Shown: positions 8,749 to 64,000 of the stretch, one piece after another
How the letters are laid out: the number at the start of each line of letters is the position of its first letter
How positions within the stretch are numbered: the stretch's first letter is position 1
Assembly: GCF_050320075.1 (NCBI RefSeq)
Contig: NZ_CP190018.1
Length of the DNA: 64,000 bases
Strand: one strand, 5' to 3'
Origin: Escherichia coli
Lineage (GTDB): Bacteria; Pseudomonadota; Gammaproteobacteria; Enterobacterales; Enterobacteriaceae
Position numbers and translations under genes: made by a program
Notes under the pieces: model-generated
What the model was told of the DNA's origin: nothing
Databases searched by the model: none
The model's input: only the letters and a program-made list of their open reading frames with translations

Positions 8749-9867
8749 CTACCAGGCCGGGAGCATAACGAATAAAACGTATCCCACCAGCGCCGCCCAC
8801 AACAGCATCGGTATTGAATAGAGATGGAAACGCCACCAGATACGGCGATCGTTCGCCATCCGTAACGCAATCAAATTTGCCAGCGATCCGGGTAATAAAC
8901 CAAAGCCCCCCACGTTTACCGCCCATGCCAGTAATAAAGACGGCGGTACATAATTGAGCAGCAAAATGGTACTCGGCACGTTACTGATCACCTGCGATAA
9001 ACCGATTGCCGTTAACCATAACCCGGGTTCAGATAAATGACTCACGTTACCCAACACACCTTGCAACGCTGGAAGCTGGGTCAGTAAATGGACGTCGATA
9101 AACATCGCCATAAACACCAGCAGCAGCGTCCAGTCCACACTGAGCACCACGCGACGTGCCAGCAGCGCAAAGCCCGCCGCCACAATCACCAGTCCCCACA
9201 GCTCTTGTTTTAACTCCAGCGCCGTCAGAAAGACGATATACAGCCCCAGACAACTCCACACCAGCCGCGGTTTCCACTCCGGAGTTTGCACCCCCGTATG
9301 GTATTGCAGTGCCTTTCCAGGGAAACAACACCAGCACAGGAGCAGGAGCGTCAGCATCATTGCGCCAGCCAGTGGTGCCATTTGGGCAATAAATCCGGCA
9401 AACGAAAGACCAGAACGTCCCCAGATAAGAATATTTTGCGGGTTGCCAATTGGCGTCAGTAGCGAACCAGCGTTGACTGCCAGCGCTTCAAAAATAATCA
9501 GCCGATTAACCGGGATCTCACACAGTCTTTTTAGCGTGATAGTCAGCGGAACAACAATAAACAGCGCGACATCGTTGGTCAGAAAGGTAGAAAGCAGCGC
9601 CGCCGCCAGCACCATAAACATCGCCAGCCGACGCTCCGTAGCAAAGCGGCGCACCATTTTGCGCCCCAGCACATCAAAATAACCGCTTAACTCCACACCT
9701 TTGGTCAGCAGCATCAGGCCGCTTAAGGTGATGATGGTGTGCCAGTCGATAGCAGCAGGCCAGGATTTCGGTGCAAAAGGCACGAAAAAGCTTAATCCGA
9801 TACCAACAAGAATTAATAACTGAAAAAAACGATCGCCTTGCAGCGTGCGTAAAAAAGGCAGGCTCAT
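8749..9867 (-). CDS. ybiR: Putative anion permease YbiR (ArsB/NhaD superfamily)
   Basis: 372-aa polytopic membrane protein, [19 protein letters not shown]-terminus; synteny. Confidence 0.85.
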
Positions 9868-10331
9868 TTGGCACCGTGTTTCTGGGTAAACAAACGAAAA
9901 GCGTCGAGCGTCTCTTCACTAACATGGTGCTCCATGCCTTCCGCGTCGCGACGGGCGATTTCCGGACTGACGCCCAACACCAACAAGAAATTTTCGACTA
10001 TCTGATGTCGCTCGCGGCTTTCCTGCGCCAGCTTCTCTCCTTCTGCCGTTAAAAACACGCCACGCCAGGGGATCATTTCAATCAGCCCCATGGTTGCCAG
10101 TCGCTTAAGCATTTTAGCCACCGTCGGTTGCGAAACTCCCAAACGAGCAGCCATGTCTACCTGACGAGCTTCCCCCACTTCCCTGATCAAGTCAGAAATC
10201 AGCTCAACGTAATCATCAATAAGCTCGCGCCGATGCGCCTCTCTGACCTGGCGGAACCCTTCAACGTGCTCTTCCACGTTCACTAACTGCGTCACTTTTT
10301 TTGCTGTTGGCGTACCTGCGCGACGACTCAT
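9864..10331 (-). CDS. mntR: Manganese-responsive regulator MntR (DtxR family)
   Basis: 155-aa translation [12 protein letters not shown]...; DtxR-like HTH; overlaps ybiR start by 4 bp. Confidence 0.9.
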
Positions 10332-10420
10332 TGTGCTTCCTCATTATGGTGACGCATACATAGCGTTCTCATTTCGTGCGCACATTGTAAACCAGAGTTG
10401 CGAAGGTACAAAAAATTAAC

Positions 10421-10460
10421 GTTTTAGCAATAGCTATATAATATAGCCTGTGCTATATCT
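10421..10460. promoter_or_regulatory. Candidate MntR operator / mntS promoter region
   Basis: AT-rich palindromic segment tagcaatagctatataatatagcctgtgctata with ATAGC/GCTAT half-sites upstream of mntS; assignment by analogy. Confidence 0.4.
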
Positions 10461-10516
10461 GTATGTAATGCAATCATCCCTCAAGGATCGACGGGATTAG
10501 CAAGTCAGGAGGTCTT

Positions 10517-10645
10517 ATGAATGAGTTCAAGAGGTGTATGCGCGTGTTTAGTCATTCTCCCTTTAAAGTACGGTTAATGCTGCTCTCTATGTTGTGCGAT
10601 ATGGTCAACAACAAACCGCAGCAAGATAAACCTTCCGATAAATAG
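10517..10645 (+). CDS. mntS: Small protein MntS (42 aa)
   Basis: Own translation: MNEFKRCMRVFSHSPFKVRLMLLSMLCDMVNNKPQQDKPSDK, strong SD aggagg 8 nt upstream; below ORF-track size cut-off. Confidence 0.8.
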   Translation: MNEFKRCMRVFSHSPFKVRLMLLSMLCDMVNNKPQQDKPSDK

Positions 10646-10916
10646 CGGCGTCACGGTACGCCGCTTCACTCCTGCTTTTATGCAGGCACAACGCGTTTTG
10701 GTCTGAAAAACCCCACTTTTTGTCGGATTTGCAATCCCCTTCGCAAAAGATTTGTTCGTCAGTAGTTGACCTGAACGGCGGCGCGCTCTATCTTCCTGCA
10801 GCCCTGCGTATATTGCGGCTCGCGGATGCGGACCCCTTTCCCCTCTCCACGCACTCTTGCAGGTATTGACCCTTGACGCCAGGGTAAGCACATGGCGTTT
10901 GTTACGATAGTGGCAT

Positions 10917-12500
10917 ATGAATTTAACCCTCAAAGAATCGCTTGTTACCCGTAGCCGGGTATTTAGCCCGTGGACTGCGTTCTACTTTTTACAGTCGCTA
11001 TTAATTAACCTCGGCTTAGGTTATCCCTTCAGTTTGCTCTACACCGCTGCGTTTACGGCTATGTTGCTTTTGCTATGGCGAACATTGCCTCGCGTACAAA
11101 AAGTTCTGGTCGGTGTCAGTTCGCTGGTGGCGGCTTGTTATTTCCCTTTTGCTCAGGCCTACGGCGCGCCTAATTTCAATACATTGCTGGCATTGCACTC
11201 CACCAATATGGAAGAGTCGACCGAAATCCTGACGATTTTTCCGTGGTACAGCTACCTGGTCGGCTTATTTATTTTTGCGCTCGGCTTAATAGCAATCAGG
11301 CGAAAAAAAGAGAATGAAAAAGCGCGCTGGAATACCTTCGACAGCCTGTGTCTGGTATTCAGTGTGGCGACATTTTTTGTTGCTCCCATGCAAAACCTGG
11401 CCTGGGGCGGCGTATTTAAACTGAAAGATACCGGCTATCCGGTATTTCGTTTTGCTAAGGATGTCATCGTCAATAATAACGAGGTGATTGAAGAGCAAGA
11501 ACGGATGGCAAAACTTTCCGGAATGAAAGATACCTGGACGGTCACTGCCGTTAAGCCGAAATATCAGACCTATGTGGTGGTGATCGGTGAAAGCGCGCGT
11601 CGCGATGCCCTCGGTGCCTTTGGCGGTCACTGGGACAATACCCCGTTTGCCAGCAGTGTTAACGGTTTGATATTTGCTGACTACATTGCCGCCAGTGGCT
11701 CCACGCAGAAATCGCTTGGCTTAACGCTCAATCGCGTAGTCGATGGCAAACCACAGTTTCAGGATAACTTTGTCACCCTGGCAAATCGCGCGGGCTTCCA
11801 GACCTGGTGGTTTTCCAACCAGGGCCAAATCGGCGAATACGATACCGCCATCGCCAGCATCGCCAAACGTGCAGATGAAGTGTACTTCCTGAAAGAAGGT
11901 AATTTTGAAGCAGATAAAAACACGAAAGACGAAGCGTTACTGGATATGACCGCTCAAGTGCTGGCACAAGAGCACTCGCAACCGCAGCTGATTGTTTTAC
12001 ATCTGATGGGCTCGCATCCGCAGGCCTGCGACAGGACACAAGGCAAATACGAAACCTTTGTGCAATCGAAAGAAACGTCGTGCTATCTCTATACCATGAC
12101 GCAAACAGACGATTTACTGCGTAAGCTGTACGATCAGTTACGCAACAGCGGCAGCAGCTTCTCGCTGGTTTACTTTTCTGACCACGGTCTGGCCTTTAAA
12201 GAGCGCGGCAAAGACGTGCAATACCTTGCCCATGATGATAAATATCAGCAAAATTTCCAGGTGCCTTTTATGGTCATTTCGAGCGACGATAAAGCGCATC
12301 GGGTGATTAAAGCCCGCCGCTCTGCCAATGACTTCTTAGGCTTTTTCTCCCAGTGGACGGGAATTAAAGCGAAGGAAATTAACATCAAATACCCGTTTAT
12401 ATCTGAGAAGAAAGCCGGGCCGATATACATCACCAACTTCCAGTTACAGAAGGTGGATTACAACCATCTCGGAACCGATATTTTCGACCCGAAACCTTAA
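10917..12500 (+). CDS. opgE: Phosphoethanolamine transferase OpgE (YbiP)
   Basis: 527-aa membrane N-domain plus sulfatase-like domain; synteny. Confidence 0.85.
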   Translation: MNLTLKESLVTRSRVFSPWTAFYFLQSLLINLGLGYPFSLLYTAAFTAMLLLLWRTLPRVQKVLVGVSSLVAACYFPFAQAYGAPNFNTLLALHSTNMEESTEILTIFPWYSYLVGLFIFALGLIAIRRKKENEKARWNTFDSLCLVFSVATFFVAPMQNLAWGGVFKLKDTGYPVFRFAKDVIVNNNEVIEEQERMAKLSGMKDTWTVTAVKPKYQTYVVVIGESARRDALGAFGGHWDNTPFASSVNGLIFADYIAASGSTQKSLGLTLNRVVDGKPQFQDNFVTLANRAGFQTWWFSNQGQIGEYDTAIASIAKRADEVYFLKEGNFEADKNTKDEALLDMTAQVLAQEHSQPQLIVLHLMGSHPQACDRTQGKYETFVQSKETSCYLYTMTQTDDLLRKLYDQLRNSGSSFSLVYFSDHGLAFKERGKDVQYLAHDDKYQQNFQVPFMVISSDDKAHRVIKARRSANDFLGFFSQWTGIKAKEINIKYPFISEKKAGPIYITNFQLQKVDYNHLGTDIFDPKP

Positions 12501-13064: not shown

Positions 13065-13416
13065 AACCACCTCAAATGTGATTCAAATAAGTCCTAAGTT
13101 TTAAATATATCAAAAATTAATGGGAAACTCTTCGCGATTTGTGATGTCTAACGGGCCATTTCATGTAACAGAACGTTTCCATACACCGCTATCCATCTAA
13201 ATTTAAATCACTTTTTCAGAGAACTGCGTAAGTATTACGCATGTTTTCCCTGTCATTCATCCAGATTATTCCTAATCACCAGACTAATGATTCCATCAAT
13301 CCTGGCGCATTTTAGTCAAAACGGGGGAAAATTTTTTCAACAAATGCTCAACCAGCATTGGGTATATCCAGTACACTCCACGCTTTACTTAAGTCTAGAT
13401 ATTTGTGGGAGAAAGG

Positions 13417-14458: not shown

Positions 14459-15106
<648 letters not shown>

Positions 15107-25705: not shown

Positions 25706-25844
25706 TTCGTAAGCCGGATCAGGCGTTTACGCTACGTCCAGCACAAGTATTTCCCTGTCTGTTTGCCGACAGACGCATATGCTCTAACCCTCATTGATCC
25801 TATGTTACCCTTGTTTGCCCGTCCGCCACTGGACGGGCTTTTTT

Positions 25845-57678: not shown

Positions 57679-57689
57679 CCCCCCCCCCC
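57679..57689. repeat. Homopolymeric C11 tract
   Basis: 11 consecutive C at 57679-57689; a second C6 run at 57776-57781. Confidence 0.9.
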
Positions 57690-57882
57690 TCATGCTTATC
57701 AAATACTTCACAACAACGGAATTTTAATCCACATTTGTTATCTGTCTCTATCAGATTCATCCATACCCCCCTCCATTATTATTTAATTTCCAGATAAAAA
57801 TCTTCATCCTGTTATACATATAAAAAAGTGCAATATTTAAATAATGATAACAAATTATTGATTTTGCTCACATAAATTTTAT

Positions 57883-57911
57883 TGACAAGATGATAAGCTG
57901 ATATCTACACA
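57883..57911 (+). promoter_or_regulatory. Candidate sigma70 promoter for the zinc-ribbon ORF
   Basis: TTGACA at 57883-57888, 17-bp spacer, weak -10 tacaca; SD aagagg 5 nt before ATG 57935. Confidence 0.4.
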
Positions 57912-57934
57912 TTGTATTTTCTCAAGAGGAATTT

Positions 57935-58348
57935 ATGGCTGACATTGTCACTGGTTTGACCGCACTCAAAACCGCCTTTGATTTAGCAAAAGATATAAAA
58001 AATGCCACTGGCGCATACAATGATGCAGAAATGAGGCTTAAGTTTAGTGAGCTTTATAGCGCGCTATCTGAAGCCAAAATAGAACTGGCTGATACACAGC
58101 TAGAAATGTATGAACTAAAGCTGAAGATCGAAGAGTTGCAAGCTAAGCTTGATGCATCGGACGAGCTTGAATATAGGGAAAACGTATACTGGAGGGCCTC
58201 ACCTATCAATGGCAAACCAAACGGTCCTTTTTGCCCAAGATGTTATGAAAGTTCAGAGAAGAAGCTATCTTCAATGAGTCAAGTAACGGGGCATGCAACT
58301 ATTGCTGGAAAATACAAATGTAATACTTGTAACGCCTACGTTAGATAA
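57935..58348 (+). CDS. Small coiled-coil protein with C-terminal CxxC...CxxC zinc ribbon (prophage cargo)
   Basis: 137 aa; heptad-like LKFSELYSALSEAKIELADTQLEMYELKLKIEELQAKL; CPRCY ... CNTCNAY; good SD. Confidence 0.6.
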   Translation: MADIVTGLTALKTAFDLAKDIKNATGAYNDAEMRLKFSELYSALSEAKIELADTQLEMYELKLKIEELQAKLDASDELEYRENVYWRASPINGKPNGPFCPRCYESSEKKLSSMSQVTGHATIAGKYKCNTCNAYVR

Positions 58349-58684
58349 AAAGCCGTTATGGGGCTGGGACGGAGGCTCAAATCCTCTCGTGCAAAAATTC
58401 AGCTAAAACTTTTGTTCAGGAGACTCTGAAAGATACCAAGAAGTCTGCTGACGAGTGGTTTATTTACTAATTAGCACGTAAAATCTATTATGGCTGGAAA
58501 TCATTCAATACTCGTACTATCGAAAGTTCGCCAGCCGACAGCAAAACGCTATTGCATGGCAGGGATTGCAGGCCTCTCGATATTCGGTGCTAAGGATGTA
58601 TCAACACGGTTCAGCAGAACCCGATGCGTCTTCAAAACCGCAGCAACGATATCTCTTCCTCCGTTCCATTTACAGCCACCTTTT

Positions 58685-58993
58685 TCACCCTCGATTAACC
58701 AACAACCAGACCAGAAGACACGCTACCACCGGCACAGCAAAATCCATCAGGCTTGCCATATCCCACGCGCGTGGGTCAAAACCGCCCCACCACGGCATAT
58801 TCATTCGCTTGCCATGCCCGAACATTTCGATCCAGCGATATTCTGCCTGGGTGTGTTCACGCGCAATGAAGAACGTACAACCGGCTATCGCCCCGTAAGC
58901 CCAGTTCCCGGTAAAAAGACCAATCAGTAGCTGCGCAGCCACAGCACAAAGCGCATGAAGGAAAGGTGTTATATCCATTTTCATCCCACCCAA
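58685..58993 (-). CDS. Small predicted membrane protein (prophage, unknown function)
   Basis: 102 aa with two hydrophobic segments; several alternative Met starts; lies just downstream of the tail-fibre genes. Confidence 0.5.
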   Translation of the reverse strand: MGGMKMDITPFLHALCAVAAQLLIGLFTGNWAYGAIAGCTFFIAREHTQAEYRWIEMFGHGKRMNMPWWGGFDPRAWDMASLMDFAVPVVACLLVWLLVNRG

Positions 58994-59020
58994 TAAAACG
59001 GGGCGCTCGGCCCCTTAATA

Positions 59021-60061
59021 TTATTTAGACGCAAGCGCCGCATCAATTGCAGATAATCTTTGTCTTAATTCTGCGTTTTCTTCTTCCAGTGCTGTTATTC
59101 TGTCGTCTGACTCTCTGGCTACCTGAACAAGCAAGCCAGTAACACCAGAATAATCTACTGTGTAATAACGTTCACCTTCTTCACCTTCCGATCCGCTCGC
59201 ACCGTCCTGATATTTCATTACGGAACCTACAACTTCTGGGATTGCTTCCAGAGCTTCCTGTGCAATGACACCAGCATAGGGCATACCGTTTTCTTTAAGC
59301 GTGTATGTATAGCCGTTCATTTTACGGATGCGGTCGGTTGCATTATCGATCACCTGAATGTTGTCTTTCAGATCCCGGTCGGAATGCTGGTTAAATGCGG
59401 TGGCATGACATGCACCATTAACGCTTAACATATAGGTGTTATCGGTATTTTTCTGCGCATAGAACATATAAGCGCCACCATCAACACCGACTTCATAAAC
59501 AACAGGACGGCTGGAGTTGCCCCACAATTGAGCAGTAACACCAGCATAAGCGGTTCCCTGTGTGTTTAATGTCATGGTTGACCCATGATTGGCATATTTG
59601 ATCTGTAATGTGTCGGTGTAATCAAATTTAATAAGCGCGTTACTTCCACGCTTGCTGTATGACATAAGGCAGTTACCCATTTTGAGGTATCCGCTGTCAC
59701 CGGGAAAAATCATCGTACCGCCATAAAGGTTGGTAAAGTCCCAGCAAATGTTTGTCCCGTTATCGTTCAGGTTAAGGCGCGCCATTGCGTTACCTGGACT
59801 GTCTATCCATTTTTTGAGGTATAGTTCGCAATATGCATCCTCAACACCTGCCGTCCTGTGAGTTGAGCGGAGTTTTCTCCCAAATATAGCTCCGCTAGTT
59901 GGCAATACCTGCTGATACCATGAAGCAGACCAGTCACCAACGGTTTCATCTTTGCTGTCTACATATGATTTTGTTGCGTAGCTTCCTTGATCGTTTTTTA
60001 ATTTGCTAACGTCGGATTTTAGCGTTTTGATGTCATCAGGAATTACTGTCGATGTAGCCAT
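59021..60061 (-). CDS. Tail fibre / spike-like protein with C-terminal intramolecular chaperone (peptidase S74-like) domain
   Basis: 346 aa; C-terminal SDRDLKDNIQVIDNATDRIRKMNGYTYTLKENGMPYAGVIAQEALEAIPEVV plus terminal coiled coil (ITALEEENAELRQRLSAIDAAL). Confidence 0.65.
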   Translation of the reverse strand: MATSTVIPDDIKTLKSDVSKLKNDQGSYATKSYVDSKDETVGDWSASWYQQVLPTSGAIFGRKLRSTHRTAGVEDAYCELYLKKWIDSPGNAMARLNLNDNGTNICWDFTNLYGGTMIFPGDSGYLKMGNCLMSYSKRGSNALIKFDYTDTLQIKYANHGSTMTLNTQGTAYAGVTAQLWGNSSRPVVYEVGVDGGAYMFYAQKNTDNTYMLSVNGACHATAFNQHSDRDLKDNIQVIDNATDRIRKMNGYTYTLKENGMPYAGVIAQEALEAIPEVVGSVMKYQDGASGSEGEEGERYYTVDYSGVTGLLVQVARESDDRITALEEENAELRQRLSAIDAALASK

Positions 60062-60070
60062 TTTTCTTCC

Positions 60071-60352
60071 TCACATCCAGCCACGAAGTTGATGCTCAAC
60101 AGCAACCACGTATTCATCGAATATTGACGGTGTTTTCACATCATTAATGATGCGCACGTTTACAAAATATCCGTCTTCCTTAACACATACCGGTTCGCCA
60201 TCTTCATTCAGTTCTCCGGTTTCTTTGTACACGTTACCTATCACGTCAATAAGAATATCATCCTGCATCGACTCATCATCATAATAGCCAGTGCTATCCA
60301 TAAAGGCCGAAAAATCGGCCCTGTCGGCAAATTTAAGTGTTAAATCTTTCAT
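60071..60352 (-). CDS. Small acidic protein translationally coupled to stf (possible fibre assembly/accessory protein)
   Basis: 93 aa; ATG overlaps stf stop (ATGA); no family recognised. Confidence 0.5.
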   Translation of the reverse strand: MKDLTLKFADRADFSAFMDSTGYYDDESMQDDILIDVIGNVYKETGELNEDGEPVCVKEDGYFVNVRIINDVKTPSIFDEYVVAVEHQLRGWM

Positions 60353-62748
60353 TTAATACTCTCCCCCATTTGCGCATCAGTTAATTCTTTATGCCAGAGA
60401 CGAAGATTTCTCAAATGGCCGAATAGATGACGTGTCCCTGATGTGGCTTGACCTCCTATTCTAATAAAGGTCCGCGTTTTTACGCCCGTCCATTCCGTTT
60501 CAATGGTTTTAGTAGCCTCACCGTTAGAAACTACTCGTTTAGTACCGTCAGAATAAATATTAAAACCACCAATGAATTTTCGAACATCCGTTCGACCAGT
60601 AAACAAACTAGAAACGTAACTACTTGTCGACGCTTTATAAGTTTGCATATAAAGCTGACCGTAATATCTCTCGGTTGTGTTAAAAGCGTATGTGATTGAC
60701 TCAATAGGCGGCACACCAGAAAAATCAAAAATACGCGGTGCTACATTAGGGGGAATATCGCCCCAATTCCTGTTAACCTCGACCAAACAAGTAAGCGGTC
60801 TGTTATAAATGTTGTTTTCGGTCGGGATCGTAACCATATCACTCGCACGAGTCGCCGCCGTCGCTCCTGATATAATAAAAGATGATACACAAGGCCCATC
60901 TTCTACTTGTGGGGTGGCCAGATAAATATAGTCACCAGATACGGTTGCCCCGCTCTGCTTAGGAGAATACTGTATCTGAGAGCCTATTTTTAACTCCCCA
61001 TCAATTGCCTGAATTGTTGCCTCTGCAAAAATCCATCCGGTAGCTTCGTCCTTTCTGACTCTCGCTGTAATCCTTGAGGCAGCACCGCCTGTCATATTAA
61101 TTTCAAGCGTTTGTGTATCAATATACGCATCACCAAGAAAAGTTGTTGCGCTACCGTCATATTTATCAAACCGGATACGCAACCTTACCTGCAGTTCTGT
61201 TTTAAAACGACATGAGGTTGTCACGTATTTATTATCGCCTGAGACATCAACTGACTTTGTTGCAGCAATTGATGCCATATTAATGGCTGAGGTTTGCCCA
61301 ATCAGAGAATCGTTACAGACAAACTTTCCATAGGTAAAACCAAAACTATCCGTCCCGGTTTCGGGAACATCCATATTTGACGATCGCCCCCAACTGGCAG
61401 GGCTTTCCGAATTGAGCATGTAGTTCGCTCTTTGCCCCTCAATAAGCAGGCCATCACGTTCAAATCGTGGCTCGTCAATGGCAGCCTCTGTCAGCACACC
61501 AGATTTATTAATATAGGTTGCTTTCGATGCGCGTTTAAACTTTACAACCTTATCGCCAGGCATCGTTATTTCATCATCACCAATAACAATCTTTTTATAT
61601 GACGGCGAAAACCCCGTAATCATATCCAGTGAATCGTTAAACGGTATCCACACATCAGGCAACGGCTGCAAAACTTGTTTATACGGCTCCGCTGCCTGGC
61701 TTGCATACTCTCTGGCTGCGTCTTCACTTGCTTTAGCTGCTGTCTGGCTTGCTGCCGATGCTTGCGCCGAGTTCGCCGCTGTAGTCTCGCTCGCCTTTGC
61801 GTTGTCTTCACTGGTTTTTGCAGCTCTTTGACTGTTGGCTGATGCCGTGGCAGAAGCAGCCGCCGCGCTTGCAGAACCAGCTGCGGCACTCTCGCTTTGG
61901 GCCGCTGCATCCTGACTGTTTTTCGCCGCAGTTTCGCTGGCTTTGGCATTCGTTTCGCTGGTCTTCGCTGCAGTCTCGCTTGTCTTTGCGTTGGTTTCAC
62001 TGGTTTTTGCAGCTCTTTGACTGTTGGCTGATGCCGTGGCAGAAGTAGCCGCCGCACTTGCAGAACTGGCTGCCGCTCTCTCGCTTTGGGCTGCTGCATC
62101 CTGACTGTTTTTTGCTGCGGTAGCGGAGTTTGCTGCGGCACTCTGACTCGATTCTGCAGCCACCTCGCTATTTTTCGCATTAGTTTCGCTGGTCTTTGAA
62201 GCTGTCTCACTCGCTTTTGAGTTGTTTTCTGATTTTTTGGCTGCAGTCGCGGAGTTTGCCGATGCAGTCTGTGAGGCCGCTGCCGCCTGTGCGCTGTTAG
62301 CTGCATTCGTTTCTGAGGTTTTCGCCGCGTTCTTCGATGATGCCGCTGCAGTTTCGGATGTCTTTGCCGCCGCTGCGCTCTGAGAGGCGGCTTCAGCGTT
62401 GCGTGCCGCTTCTTCCACCATTTCCTGAAAACGGCGCAATGCCTCCGGCATGACATCATCTTCCGTCATGGCACCGAGAAAATCATTCAGCGTCCCCGGA
62501 CTGGAACCTTCATAGACGGTAATGGTCCCGGCATGTGAAGGCGGAAAACCTTCAACCAGCAGGATGACGCTGTACTGGCCATACTCAACGTCCATACTGT
62601 AACGCCCGGCTTCATCAGGATTTTCAGAGGCCACCGTGTTCACCAGTACCGTGGTGCTGTTACGCTTTGCCTTCAGTTGAATAGTGCAGTTCTGTATTGG
62701 TTTTCCCGCACCATCTTTCAGCACACCTGAGATTTTTACTGCTGCCAT
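60349..62748 (-). CDS. stf: Side tail fibre protein Stf-like (lambda Stf N-terminus, Ala/Ser/Thr-rich repeat shaft, LamG-like distal domain)
   Basis: N-terminus MAAVKISGVLKDGAGKPIQNCTIQLKAKRNSTTV... matches lambda Stf as I recall it; C-terminus ...FGHLRNLRLWHKELTDAQ resembles LamG-domain ends; ATG at 62748. Confidence 0.8.
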   Translation of the reverse strand: MAAVKISGVLKDGAGKPIQNCTIQLKAKRNSTTVLVNTVASENPDEAGRYSMDVEYGQYSVILLVEGFPPSHAGTITVYEGSSPGTLNDFLGAMTEDDVMPEALRRFQEMVEEAARNAEAASQSAAAAKTSETAAASSKNAAKTSETNAANSAQAAAASQTASANSATAAKKSENNSKASETASKTSETNAKNSEVAAESSQSAAANSATAAKNSQDAAAQSERAAASSASAAATSATASANSQRAAKTSETNAKTSETAAKTSETNAKASETAAKNSQDAAAQSESAAAGSASAAAASATASANSQRAAKTSEDNAKASETTAANSAQASAASQTAAKASEDAAREYASQAAEPYKQVLQPLPDVWIPFNDSLDMITGFSPSYKKIVIGDDEITMPGDKVVKFKRASKATYINKSGVLTEAAIDEPRFERDGLLIEGQRANYMLNSESPASWGRSSNMDVPETGTDSFGFTYGKFVCNDSLIGQTSAINMASIAATKSVDVSGDNKYVTTSCRFKTELQVRLRIRFDKYDGSATTFLGDAYIDTQTLEINMTGGAASRITARVRKDEATGWIFAEATIQAIDGELKIGSQIQYSPKQSGATVSGDYIYLATPQVEDGPCVSSFIISGATAATRASDMVTIPTENNIYNRPLTCLVEVNRNWGDIPPNVAPRIFDFSGVPPIESITYAFNTTERYYGQLYMQTYKASTSSYVSSLFTGRTDVRKFIGGFNIYSDGTKRVVSNGEATKTIETEWTGVKTRTFIRIGGQATSGTRHLFGHLRNLRLWHKELTDAQMGESIK
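61809..62122. repeat. Tandem direct repeat (period 189 bp) inside stf
   Basis: cactggtttttgcagctctttgactgttggctgatgccgtggcagaag... occurs at 61809 and again at 61998. Confidence 0.8.
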
Positions 62749-62812
62749 ATCCACTCCACAAAAAAGCCCGCCTGAACCGGCGGGCTGTCATAACACTGTG
62801 TTACCTGGCTAA

Positions 62813-63412
62813 TCAGAATTTATAACCGACACCCACGATGAAACCGTCAGTGTGCCAGTCACCACTGCCGGAGCCTTCATAAGCAAGGTCAATGGCCACG
62901 GATTCGGTCGGGTTAAACTGCACGCCAGCCCCCCACGCCAGAGACGTGTCGCTGTGGCGACCGTCATCACTTCCGTTCAGCACATCGTACGTTTTCCCCT
63001 TATTGTCAGTTACGCGGAGATAATCCCCGGAGAAGGTCGACACACGGCTGTAAGCCACGCCCGCCATCGCATACGCGCTGAACCATTCATTCACGCGTAC
63101 AGACGGCCCCGCCATCATGCTGAACCAGCGGTTACGCACTGAATCTTCATGCCAGCGGGTATCGCTGTAACGGGTAATCTGGCGATTCTTGTCTCCTGCA
63201 TAACTGAATGACGTCACCAGCCCCAGCGTGTCCGTAAATTCATAACGGTATTTCACGTTAATGCCCTTCAGGTCATCACTGCCTGGCATATCAGTATGGG
63301 CCTGAAGATACCCGGCGCTTAGTGTGGACTGATGCTCTGCTGCGCTCGCTGGCGTACCAACGGCAACCAGCCAGACTACTGCGGACAGAATAACAGCACA
63401 TAATTTACGCAT
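62813..63412 (-). CDS. lom: Outer membrane protein Lom (Ail/Lom family)
   Basis: 199 aa, near-identical to lambda Lom as I recall it (MRKL.A.ILSA...[11 protein letters not shown]...GVGYKF). Confidence 0.85.
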
Positions 63413-63479
63413 AATTACCTCTCGCTTTTCTGCAATAAAAAAGGCGTCATTTCTGACGCCCGTATTGGGGTTATAAAAT

Positions 63480-64000
63480 TCAGCTGATACTGATGCCTGC
63501 GGTGGCTTTCTTCATCACCACAACCAGCAAATCGCTGATACTTGCTGTGGGATACCAGTCATTTACCAGCCATGCTGACACCGAAAACTCCAGCGTCATG
63601 TGACCGTGACCGGCAGGCATATCAACAACGCCACTGTAAATCAGCGTATTATCCAGCGCGGTACGGTTATAAATTTCAGCACCGTTTTTCCGCACTATCA
63701 GACGGCATGAGGAGTAAATATCAGTATGCTCTCTCTCATGTTTAGCGCCGCTGAATGCCACCGCCGGAATAACAATCTGCCGGTCAAACGGCTGATCGTC
63801 ATAAACCCTGACGGTAATGGTCCCTGATGGCCACCGTTCCGGTGCACGGGAGTCACGGGGGAAAGCTTTGCCCACTGTTTTAACGAGATCGCCTTCAATC
63901 TGGTTCGCGGACAGTTTTCCCAGAACCCGGCAATTCTCGTTAATCGTGACGTTGTTGAGCGTCCCGGAGTTCGCATTCACGTTACCGCTGATATCGGCAT
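63480..64000 (-). CDS. J: Tail tip host-specificity protein J, C-terminal part (5' end beyond window)
   Basis: - strand frame open from window end to stop at 63480; position upstream of lom as in lambda. Confidence 0.7.

Follow-up and report, generated by a model that had tools for sequence, protein, structure and literature searches.

The DNA between mntR and opgE in a strain of Escherichia coli (contig NZ_CP190018.1), within the 64,000-nucleotide stretch analysed here as a whole (the window), holds an open reading frame (ORF) of 42 codons, too short to appear in an ORF track whose floor is 60 aa. Is this short frame a gene and, if so, which one, how is it controlled, what does its product do, and where did it come from?

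Identity of the short gene

The frame had been read from the sequence alone as a 42-aa plus-strand gene encoding MntS, and it is present as described: its translation, MNEFKRCMRVFSHSPFKVRLMLLSMLCDMVNNKPQQDKPSDK, is the peptide quoted in that sequence-only reading, and the perfect Shine-Dalgarno (SD) sequence claimed ahead of it is in place (Table 1). Alignment to the annotated mntS of K-12, which the same reading had named both as its check and as what could refute it, gave full identity. All 42 of the 42 residues of K-12 MntS (b4705, YP_009029995.1) are identical to the window peptide, and the DNA is 100% identical over 10300-10652, a stretch that begins 217 nt 5' of the ATG and ends 7 nt beyond the stop. 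When extended to 10300-10950 the alignment is gap-free, with 644 of 651 columns identical, and all seven differences lie 3' of the mntS stop, the first of them (window 10653, A; K-12, G) in the loop of a 3' hairpin.

Family models and genome annotation agree with this assignment. The peptide matched the NCBIfam equivalog NF033226 (small_MntS) over residues 1-39 of 42 with 96 bits (cut-off 36, E = 6e-28), RefSeq annotates the gene as mntS, and the window ORF shows every feature of the MntS family that can be tested in silico. By megablast with 10300-10950, 5421 of 5426 complete E. coli genomes have the region, its genes being annotated as mntR, mntS and opgE; the genome of E. coli YZLc1-3 (NZ_CP123240.1) is nearly identical to the window, with three mismatches up to 57688. 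The Pfam family PF26599 (MntS) appears among the precomputed annotations of all MntS homologues, and the copy of Pfam-A that we used gave no match to MntS even at E values up to 10, PF26599 being seemingly absent from that copy. A screen relying on this copy of Pfam only would label the mntS ORF an orphan.

The neighbourhood is also the expected one. As had been claimed, the gene diverges from mntR and lies upstream of opgE (Table 1). The product of mntR matched the NCBIfam MntR equivalog NF008273 (269 bits, cut-off 153) and carries the Pfam domains Fe_dep_repress and Fe_dep_repr_C. The arrangement of ybiR-mntR divergent from mntS-opgE is kept in all six other genera fetched for comparison (Salmonella, Citrobacter, Klebsiella, Kluyvera, Kosakonia and Enterobacter). 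In K-12, where MntS is encoded within the rybA transcript (b4416), protein, neighbours and orientation are the same as in the window. Window 10517-10645 is the known gene mntS, the same as in the K-12 reference. The K-12 annotation has included it since about 2011, the NCBI pipeline assigns its name in E. coli genomes, and both a curated family model and a published mechanism exist; for the window itself, the finding is nothing new.

Table 1. Features of the mntS locus and its flanks, in window coordinates.
Feature	Position	Strand	Description and basis
mntR, Mn-sensing DtxR-family repressor, 155 aa	9864..10331	-	Divergent from mntS; NCBIfam, Pfam, annotation
MntR box 1, TTAGCAATAGCTAT	10424..10437	.	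Between the -35 and -10 positions of mntS; 12 of 14 columns invariant in 7 genera
TATAAT, putative consensus -10 of the mntS/rybA promoter	10437..10442	+	Read from the sequence
MntR box 2, ATAGCCTGTGCTAT	10443..10456	.	Perfect ATAGC-N4-GCTAT over the transcription start; 13 of 14 columns (93%) invariant in 7 genera
RybA/mntS transcript	10450..10789	+	K-12 ncRNA rybA b4416 (340 nt, 852725-853064), mapped by gap-free alignment
Shine-Dalgarno AGGAGG	10507..10512	+	4 nt ahead of the mntS ATG; 5 of 6 columns invariant in 7 genera
mntS CDS	10517..10645	+	42 aa and TAG stop, ATG start; family model, K-12 match, annotation, dN/dS
GC-rich stem-loop, 8 bp, 6-nt loop	10644..10665	+	Overlaps the mntS stop codon; local fold, conservation
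Promoter-like TTGACC-17-TATCTT	10766..10794	+	Promoter scan; both hexamers conserved across genera
opgE (phosphoethanolamine transferase), 527 aa	10917..12500	+	Downstream of mntS; Pfam Sulfatase, annotation

Selection on the reading frame

A search of 5.8 billion proteins returned 136 homologues. Among the best 120, those named by their source are MntS, apart from a few with generic labels ("hypothetical protein", "Uncharacterised protein"). The homologues come from at least 10 genera (Escherichia, Shigella, Citrobacter, Salmonella, Klebsiella, Enterobacter, Kluyvera, Kosakonia, Trabulsiella and Silvania). When 18 diverse sequences from at least 10 genera were aligned, 19 columns were invariant, nearly all of them in residues 1-27; they include the motif SHSPF with P15 and F16, two cysteines (Cys7 and Cys27) and one histidine. 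The polar C-terminal tail varies in both sequence and length, and the family measures about 40-43 aa. In the DNA of seven genera, 64% of columns are invariant over codons 1-27 and 40% over codons 28-42. Pairwise dN/dS ranges from 0.04 to 0.18 in 20 comparisons, and over 36 ungapped codons the variable sites fall 12/3/26 on the first, second and third codon positions. The frame carries a clear protein-coding signature and is under strong purifying selection.

The protein has also been seen directly: parallel reaction monitoring (PRM) mass spectrometry detected the peptide VFSHSPFKVR in low Mn only, at about 6000 copies per cell, and found it absent from an mntS deletion (PMC12529367). This peptide corresponds to residues 10-19 of the window ORF.

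Together, these data decide whether the frame could be a mere chance opening in intergenic DNA with no gene behind it. Such a view could point to the shortness of the ORF, to its lack of a match in the Pfam copy used, and to the many 20-40-aa ORFs of no significance around it, but it is contradicted by the consensus SD, the occurrence in at least 10 genera, a dN/dS of 0.18 or less, the curated family model and the mass-spectrometric detection. Moreover, when the intergenic DNA of the window was scanned for SD-preceded ORFs of 10-59 aa, mntS was recovered, and at 19 aa or more it stood alone, save for two nested alternative starts of mntS itself. The evidence listed against a chance ORF already refutes it, and its probability is close to nil.

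Two other frames overlap mntS. A second ATG, 4 nt inside the gene, opens an out-of-frame 18-aa ORF (10521-10577, MSSRGVCACLVILPLKYG), which is most likely insignificant; one frameshifted database record (P0140) is a chimera of the two frames, beginning in that of this ORF and ending in that of MntS. On the minus strand, a 119-aa ORF (10574-10933) was considered as a gene and rejected: it is unannotated in both K-12 and the near-identical RefSeq genome, and its DNA is 13-25% invariant with frequent indels across genera.

Two MntR boxes in the mntS promoter

The sequence-only reading had placed an AT-rich palindromic candidate MntR operator about 60-100 bp upstream of mntS. An imperfect inverted repeat (10425-10439/10441-10455) does lie there, 62-92 nt 5' of the ATG and therefore in the proposed range, but it is better described as two 14-bp boxes than as a single palindrome. 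We derived the boxes by comparing the upstream region of mntS with those of K-12 mntH and mntP, which carry, respectively, one box (AAACATAGCAAAGGCTATGTTT) and two separated boxes (TTAGCCAAAGCTAT and ATAGCTTAGGCTAT). The unit common to the three upstream regions is (A/T)TAGC-N4-GCTAT. Both mntS boxes are palindromic and are mutually symmetric about 10440, which gives them the appearance of one long AT-rich palindrome. A single palindrome centred on 10440 was rejected as the operator unit, and two 14-bp boxes were preferred, because mntH has one such box and mntP two that are separated. The assignment to MntR is supported by a box of the form ATAGC-N4-GCTAT that mntS has in common with mntH and mntP and that is enriched in the window: TAGC-N4-GCTAT gave seven strand-matches against 0.40 expected, and none of 100 shuffles reached seven.

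The putative -10 hexamer, TATAAT, lies between the two boxes and overlaps them, and ends 7 nt 5' of the mapped 5' end of RybA at 10450, a start position transferred from the K-12 annotation onto the window strain. The mntS promoter has no recognisable -35 hexamer, and a consensus promoter scan made no call there. In seven genera, 82% of the columns of 10406-10470 are invariant, against 7% in the adjoining 10391-10405 and 28% in 10471-10506; no other part of the locus is as conserved as this promoter block. Repression of mntS by Mn-loaded MntR has been reported (Martin et al. 2015, PMC4361602), and a PmntS-egfp reporter was repressed by Mn only when MntR was present (PMC9806134). As the hexamer is placed between and across the boxes, and box 2 covers the start site, bound MntR would occlude both, and we infer that repression operates by such promoter occlusion.

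Just upstream of this block, the heptamer ATTGTAA (10384-10390) is near-invariant in seven genera amid poorly conserved DNA, and it is also found upstream of sitA in Rahnella. On the minus strand it reads TTACAAT, and the mntR promoter may use it as its -10 hexamer.

Perfect MntR-type boxes occur twice more in the window. One, ATAGCCGGTGCTAT (14540-14553), lies 50-63 nt 5' of the dps start codon (14603). The gene dps is reported as MntR-repressed (Yamamoto 2011, as cited in PMC5553809); with the box upstream of it, the window would have two MntR-controlled promoters about 4 kb apart. The other, ATAGCCAGTGCTAT (60284-60297), is in the prophage tail-fibre part of the window and is probably a chance match.

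The RybA transcript and its 3' hairpin

Seven mntS transcript species that share their 5' end and measure between 205 and about 400 nt have been described (Martin et al. 2015, PMC4361602). At the stop codon, the GC-rich stem-loop listed in Table 1 is invariant in 17 of 20 columns (85%) across seven genera, against 25% over the next 100 nt, and a local fold comprising it and a second small hairpin reaches -21.9 kcal/mol (z = -2.69). It shows no covariation, because its stem never varies. No T-run follows it in E. coli, and for this reason a terminator scan made no call at the mntS locus. We infer that the shortest (205-nt) mntS mRNA probably ends at this stem-loop or has its 3' end stabilised by it.

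The conserved hairpin raises the question of whether the locus works mainly, or additionally, through the RNA itself, as a small RNA, RybA, which in peroxide stress is reported to repress aroF and aroL, the ORF being of secondary importance. The K-12 annotation does list an ncRNA, rybA, over the same 340 nt, and a 2012 study is cited as reporting TyrR-dependent effects on genes of aromatic amino acids; the authors of a later analysis considered an sRNA role in other contexts compatible with their data (Martin et al. 2015, PMC4361602). Against it, selection acts on the frame at the level of the protein, and the Mn phenotype is lost in frameshift alleles (PMC4361602). The whole 340-nt RNA folds no better than its shuffles (z = -0.56), and an Rfam scan of 9500-11500 at E values up to 1 gave nothing for RybA, its only match being a chance one to Pseudomonas P8 inside ybiR. 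Apart from the hairpin, the 5' and 3' untranslated regions are poorly conserved (25-28% invariant). Neither a conserved structure nor an RNA-family match thus speaks for a function of RybA at the RNA level, and just the 3' hairpin is conserved. We consider a main or additional sRNA role unlikely, although the sRNA and protein readings are not mutually exclusive. A search of 10300-10950 for tandem repeats found none.

Downstream of the hairpin, the promoter-like sequence at 10766-10794 is probably the opgE promoter. The annotated 3' end of RybA (10789) falls within it, and mntS transcripts of the greatest reported length (about 400 nt) would extend into it. A further block conserved across genera (10870-10897), which includes CCCTTGACGCCAGGG, lies just 5' of the opgE ATG.

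MntS as a regulator of manganese homeostasis

The descriptor "manganese chaperone-like", attached to the gene by the sequence-only reading, is outdated. It goes back to an early hypothesis that Martin et al. 2015 (PMC4361602) tested and disfavoured. According to this hypothesis, suggested in 2011 and still repeated in later papers, MntS would pass Mn to client enzymes, a role that fits its aid to the activation of Mn-dependent enzymes when Mn is scarce (PMC4361602) and to which the two invariant cysteines and the invariant histidine of the peptide could lend themselves. Yet purified MntS did not help the metallation of MnSOD in vitro, MntS raised total cellular Mn, which is unexpected of a chaperone, and mutation of all its plausible metal ligands left activity intact (PMC4361602); its toxicity, moreover, requires the exporter MntP (bioRxiv 10.1101/2023.06.02.543501). 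A chaperone is largely refuted already and must be regarded as highly improbable.

The published work points instead to inhibition of export. MntS acts as a protein, frameshift alleles being inactive and its effect independent of Hfq, and loss of MntP mimics its overproduction (PMC4361602). MntS-dependent sensitivity to Mn disappears when a heterologous exporter replaces MntP, two-hybrid and reciprocal pull-down assays show an interaction between MntS and MntP, and MntS self-associates when Mn is present (Wright et al., bioRxiv 10.1101/2023.06.02.543501); for direct binding to MntP, the sources are the preprint version of that work and overexpression genetics. The gene mntP itself lies outside the window and is present in 5422 of 5426 E. 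coli genomes.

An AlphaFold model built on the 18-sequence alignment (mean pLDDT 75.5) predicts helices at residues 2-13 and 16-31, a kink at Ser14-Pro15 and a disordered tail, consistent with the description by Wright et al.

The locus as a whole is very probably explained by mntS being a gene of the enterobacterial core whose 42-aa cytoplasmic product regulates Mn homeostasis and blocks MntP. At low Mn, metal-free MntR would leave the two 14-bp boxes straddling the -10 hexamer and the start site. With these boxes vacated, the RybA/mntS mRNA would be made, its strong SD driving translation; MntS would bind the inner-membrane exporter MntP and block Mn efflux, and scarce Mn would be retained in the cell. 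Once Mn rises, Mn-loaded MntR would return to the boxes, occluding the hexamer and start site, and mntS would be switched off; MntS may also self-associate at this stage. In this scheme, identity, coding constraint, synteny, operator architecture and conservation, predicted fold and the descent of peptide and promoter alike from the 5' end of an mntR-linked sitA were computed here, and the Mn- and MntR-dependent repression, the detection of the protein, and the binding and inhibition of MntP come from the literature.

Other small proteins bind larger transporters: MgtS (with MgtA and PitA), KdpF, AcrZ and SgrT. Like MntS, they are stress-induced peptides of fewer than 50 aa whose partners are membrane proteins. 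They have no sequence relationship to MntS, and most of the class consist of one transmembrane helix; for MntS, the prediction is two short helices of low hydrophobicity.

Origin from the signal peptide of SitA

Descent of MntS from the signal peptide of an mntR-linked SitA has been proposed by Wright et al. (bioRxiv 10.1101/2023.06.02.543501), who found that such signal peptides are able to substitute for MntS. A one-pass profile search with MntS against 1.84 billion representatives found no full-length SitA at E values up to 1e-3. The same search returned a 50-aa record (MENGRHILKLFSHSPFRLRLMLVGMIVALITGNAQAADQ..., E = 8.8e-5), whose contig was assigned to Rahnella from exact matches of the flanking MntR and SitB proteins. 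The 50-aa ORF is divergent from mntR and runs directly into a ZnuA-family gene, which is followed by genes for an ABC ATPase and two ABC-3 permeases, together making up sitABCD. On this contig (L013, 1859-2811), a frameshift in an A9 run (~1988-1997) splits sitA into the 50-aa ORF and a 267-aa ORF of the ZnuA family; it is either a real mutation or an assembly error. Read through the frameshift, the gene encodes an ordinary SitA, whose signal peptide resembles MntS and has an AQA cleavage site. The link between MntS and SitA thus surfaced because a frameshift in one Rahnella sitA had turned the signal peptide into a separate 50-aa record.

The Rahnella signal peptide and MntS have in common the motif FSHSPF-x-RLML, with 37% identity over 35 aa, and their genes have the same divergent neighbour, mntR, and an identical MntR box, ATAGCCTGTGCTAT, in the promoter. 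The mntR-sitA intergenic DNA of Rahnella is homologous to that of E. coli mntS, with box 2 an identical 14-mer and ATTGTAA kept. This locus independently reproduces the published link between MntS and SitA and shows that promoter and operator came along with the peptide. In Rahnella the core of the signal peptide is hydrophobic throughout, an AQA site is kept, and the peptide continues into a ZnuA-family binding protein, with sitBCD coming next; in MntS, by contrast, hydrophobic core, AQA site, ZnuA-family fusion and sitBCD have all been lost, and a polar tail forms the end.

Given this ancestry, MntS might still be a signal-peptide-like element that is inserted into the membrane or secreted, and not a soluble cytoplasmic regulator. 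It keeps a hydrophobic stretch, VRLMLLSML, and its partner MntP is a membrane protein. The stretch is however short, with a best mean hydropathy of just 0.86 over 19 residues (1.46 over 15), its core is interrupted by Arg, Asp and Ser, and no AXA cleavage motif was found in the peptide, all of which speaks against MntS being transmembrane or secreted. In Rahnella SitA, in contrast, the signal peptide has MIVALITGNAQA. The features of a Sec-type signal peptide (h-region, AXA site, mature domain), all three present in the Rahnella relative, are lacking in MntS, whose stop follows codon 42, and Wright et al. likewise noted its reduced hydrophobicity and probable soluble state (bioRxiv 10.1101/2023.06.02.543501). 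Retention of a membrane-inserted or secreted form is improbable, and a soluble cytoplasmic MntS is the preferred reading.

A related locus in Rouxiella aceris (L014, 5001-5198; also L015 and L016) carries a 65-aa "hypothetical protein" with SHSPF-x-LRLML, divergent from mntR and without sitBCD downstream. The peptide has 64% identity with the signal peptide of Rahnella SitA, against only 44% with MntS; the promoter is very similar to that of Rahnella sitA, and the MntR box is identical. This ORF may be a second stand-alone remnant of the 5' end of sitA. A broader scenario, in which mntS inherited the whole mntR-linked 5' module of sitA (MntR boxes, promoter, SD and signal-peptide codons) and a similar truncation occurred again in Yersiniaceae, is possible, and we put it forward as a doubtful one. 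If true, the conversion of a signal peptide into a small protein of its own would be a recurrent route and no one-off. Inheritance of the module and its repetition in Yersiniaceae go slightly beyond the published account, and they concern related loci, not the window.

Another locus, from Logan assemblies (L017, 5001-5132), carries a 43-aa MntS-like ORF of diverged sequence (MQNTDRGFRLLSRTPFQLRLLLINLLC...), transcribed divergently from mntR; directly after it come an EamA (rhtA-like) and a ferritin/Dps-like gene, and neither opgE nor ompX intervenes.

Other short genes and strain differences in the window

Two further short genes are annotated in the near-identical reference genome, both on the minus strand: yliM (21 aa, upstream of ompX) at 13117-13182 and ybiE (19 aa) at 25719-25778. 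With mntS, the annotated genes of fewer than 60 aa in the window number three, and a track that lists ORFs from 60 aa upwards conceals genuine genes of functional importance. The intergenic SD scan described above (ORFs of 10-59 aa) missed both yliM and ybiE; as mntS was the only one of the three that it found, the detection of short genes needs conservation or family models beyond SD motifs.

The near identity with E. coli YZLc1-3 gives way to divergence from 57689 onwards (57689-64000), inside the tail-fibre region of a lambdoid prophage, and the window strain thus differs from it in prophage content.
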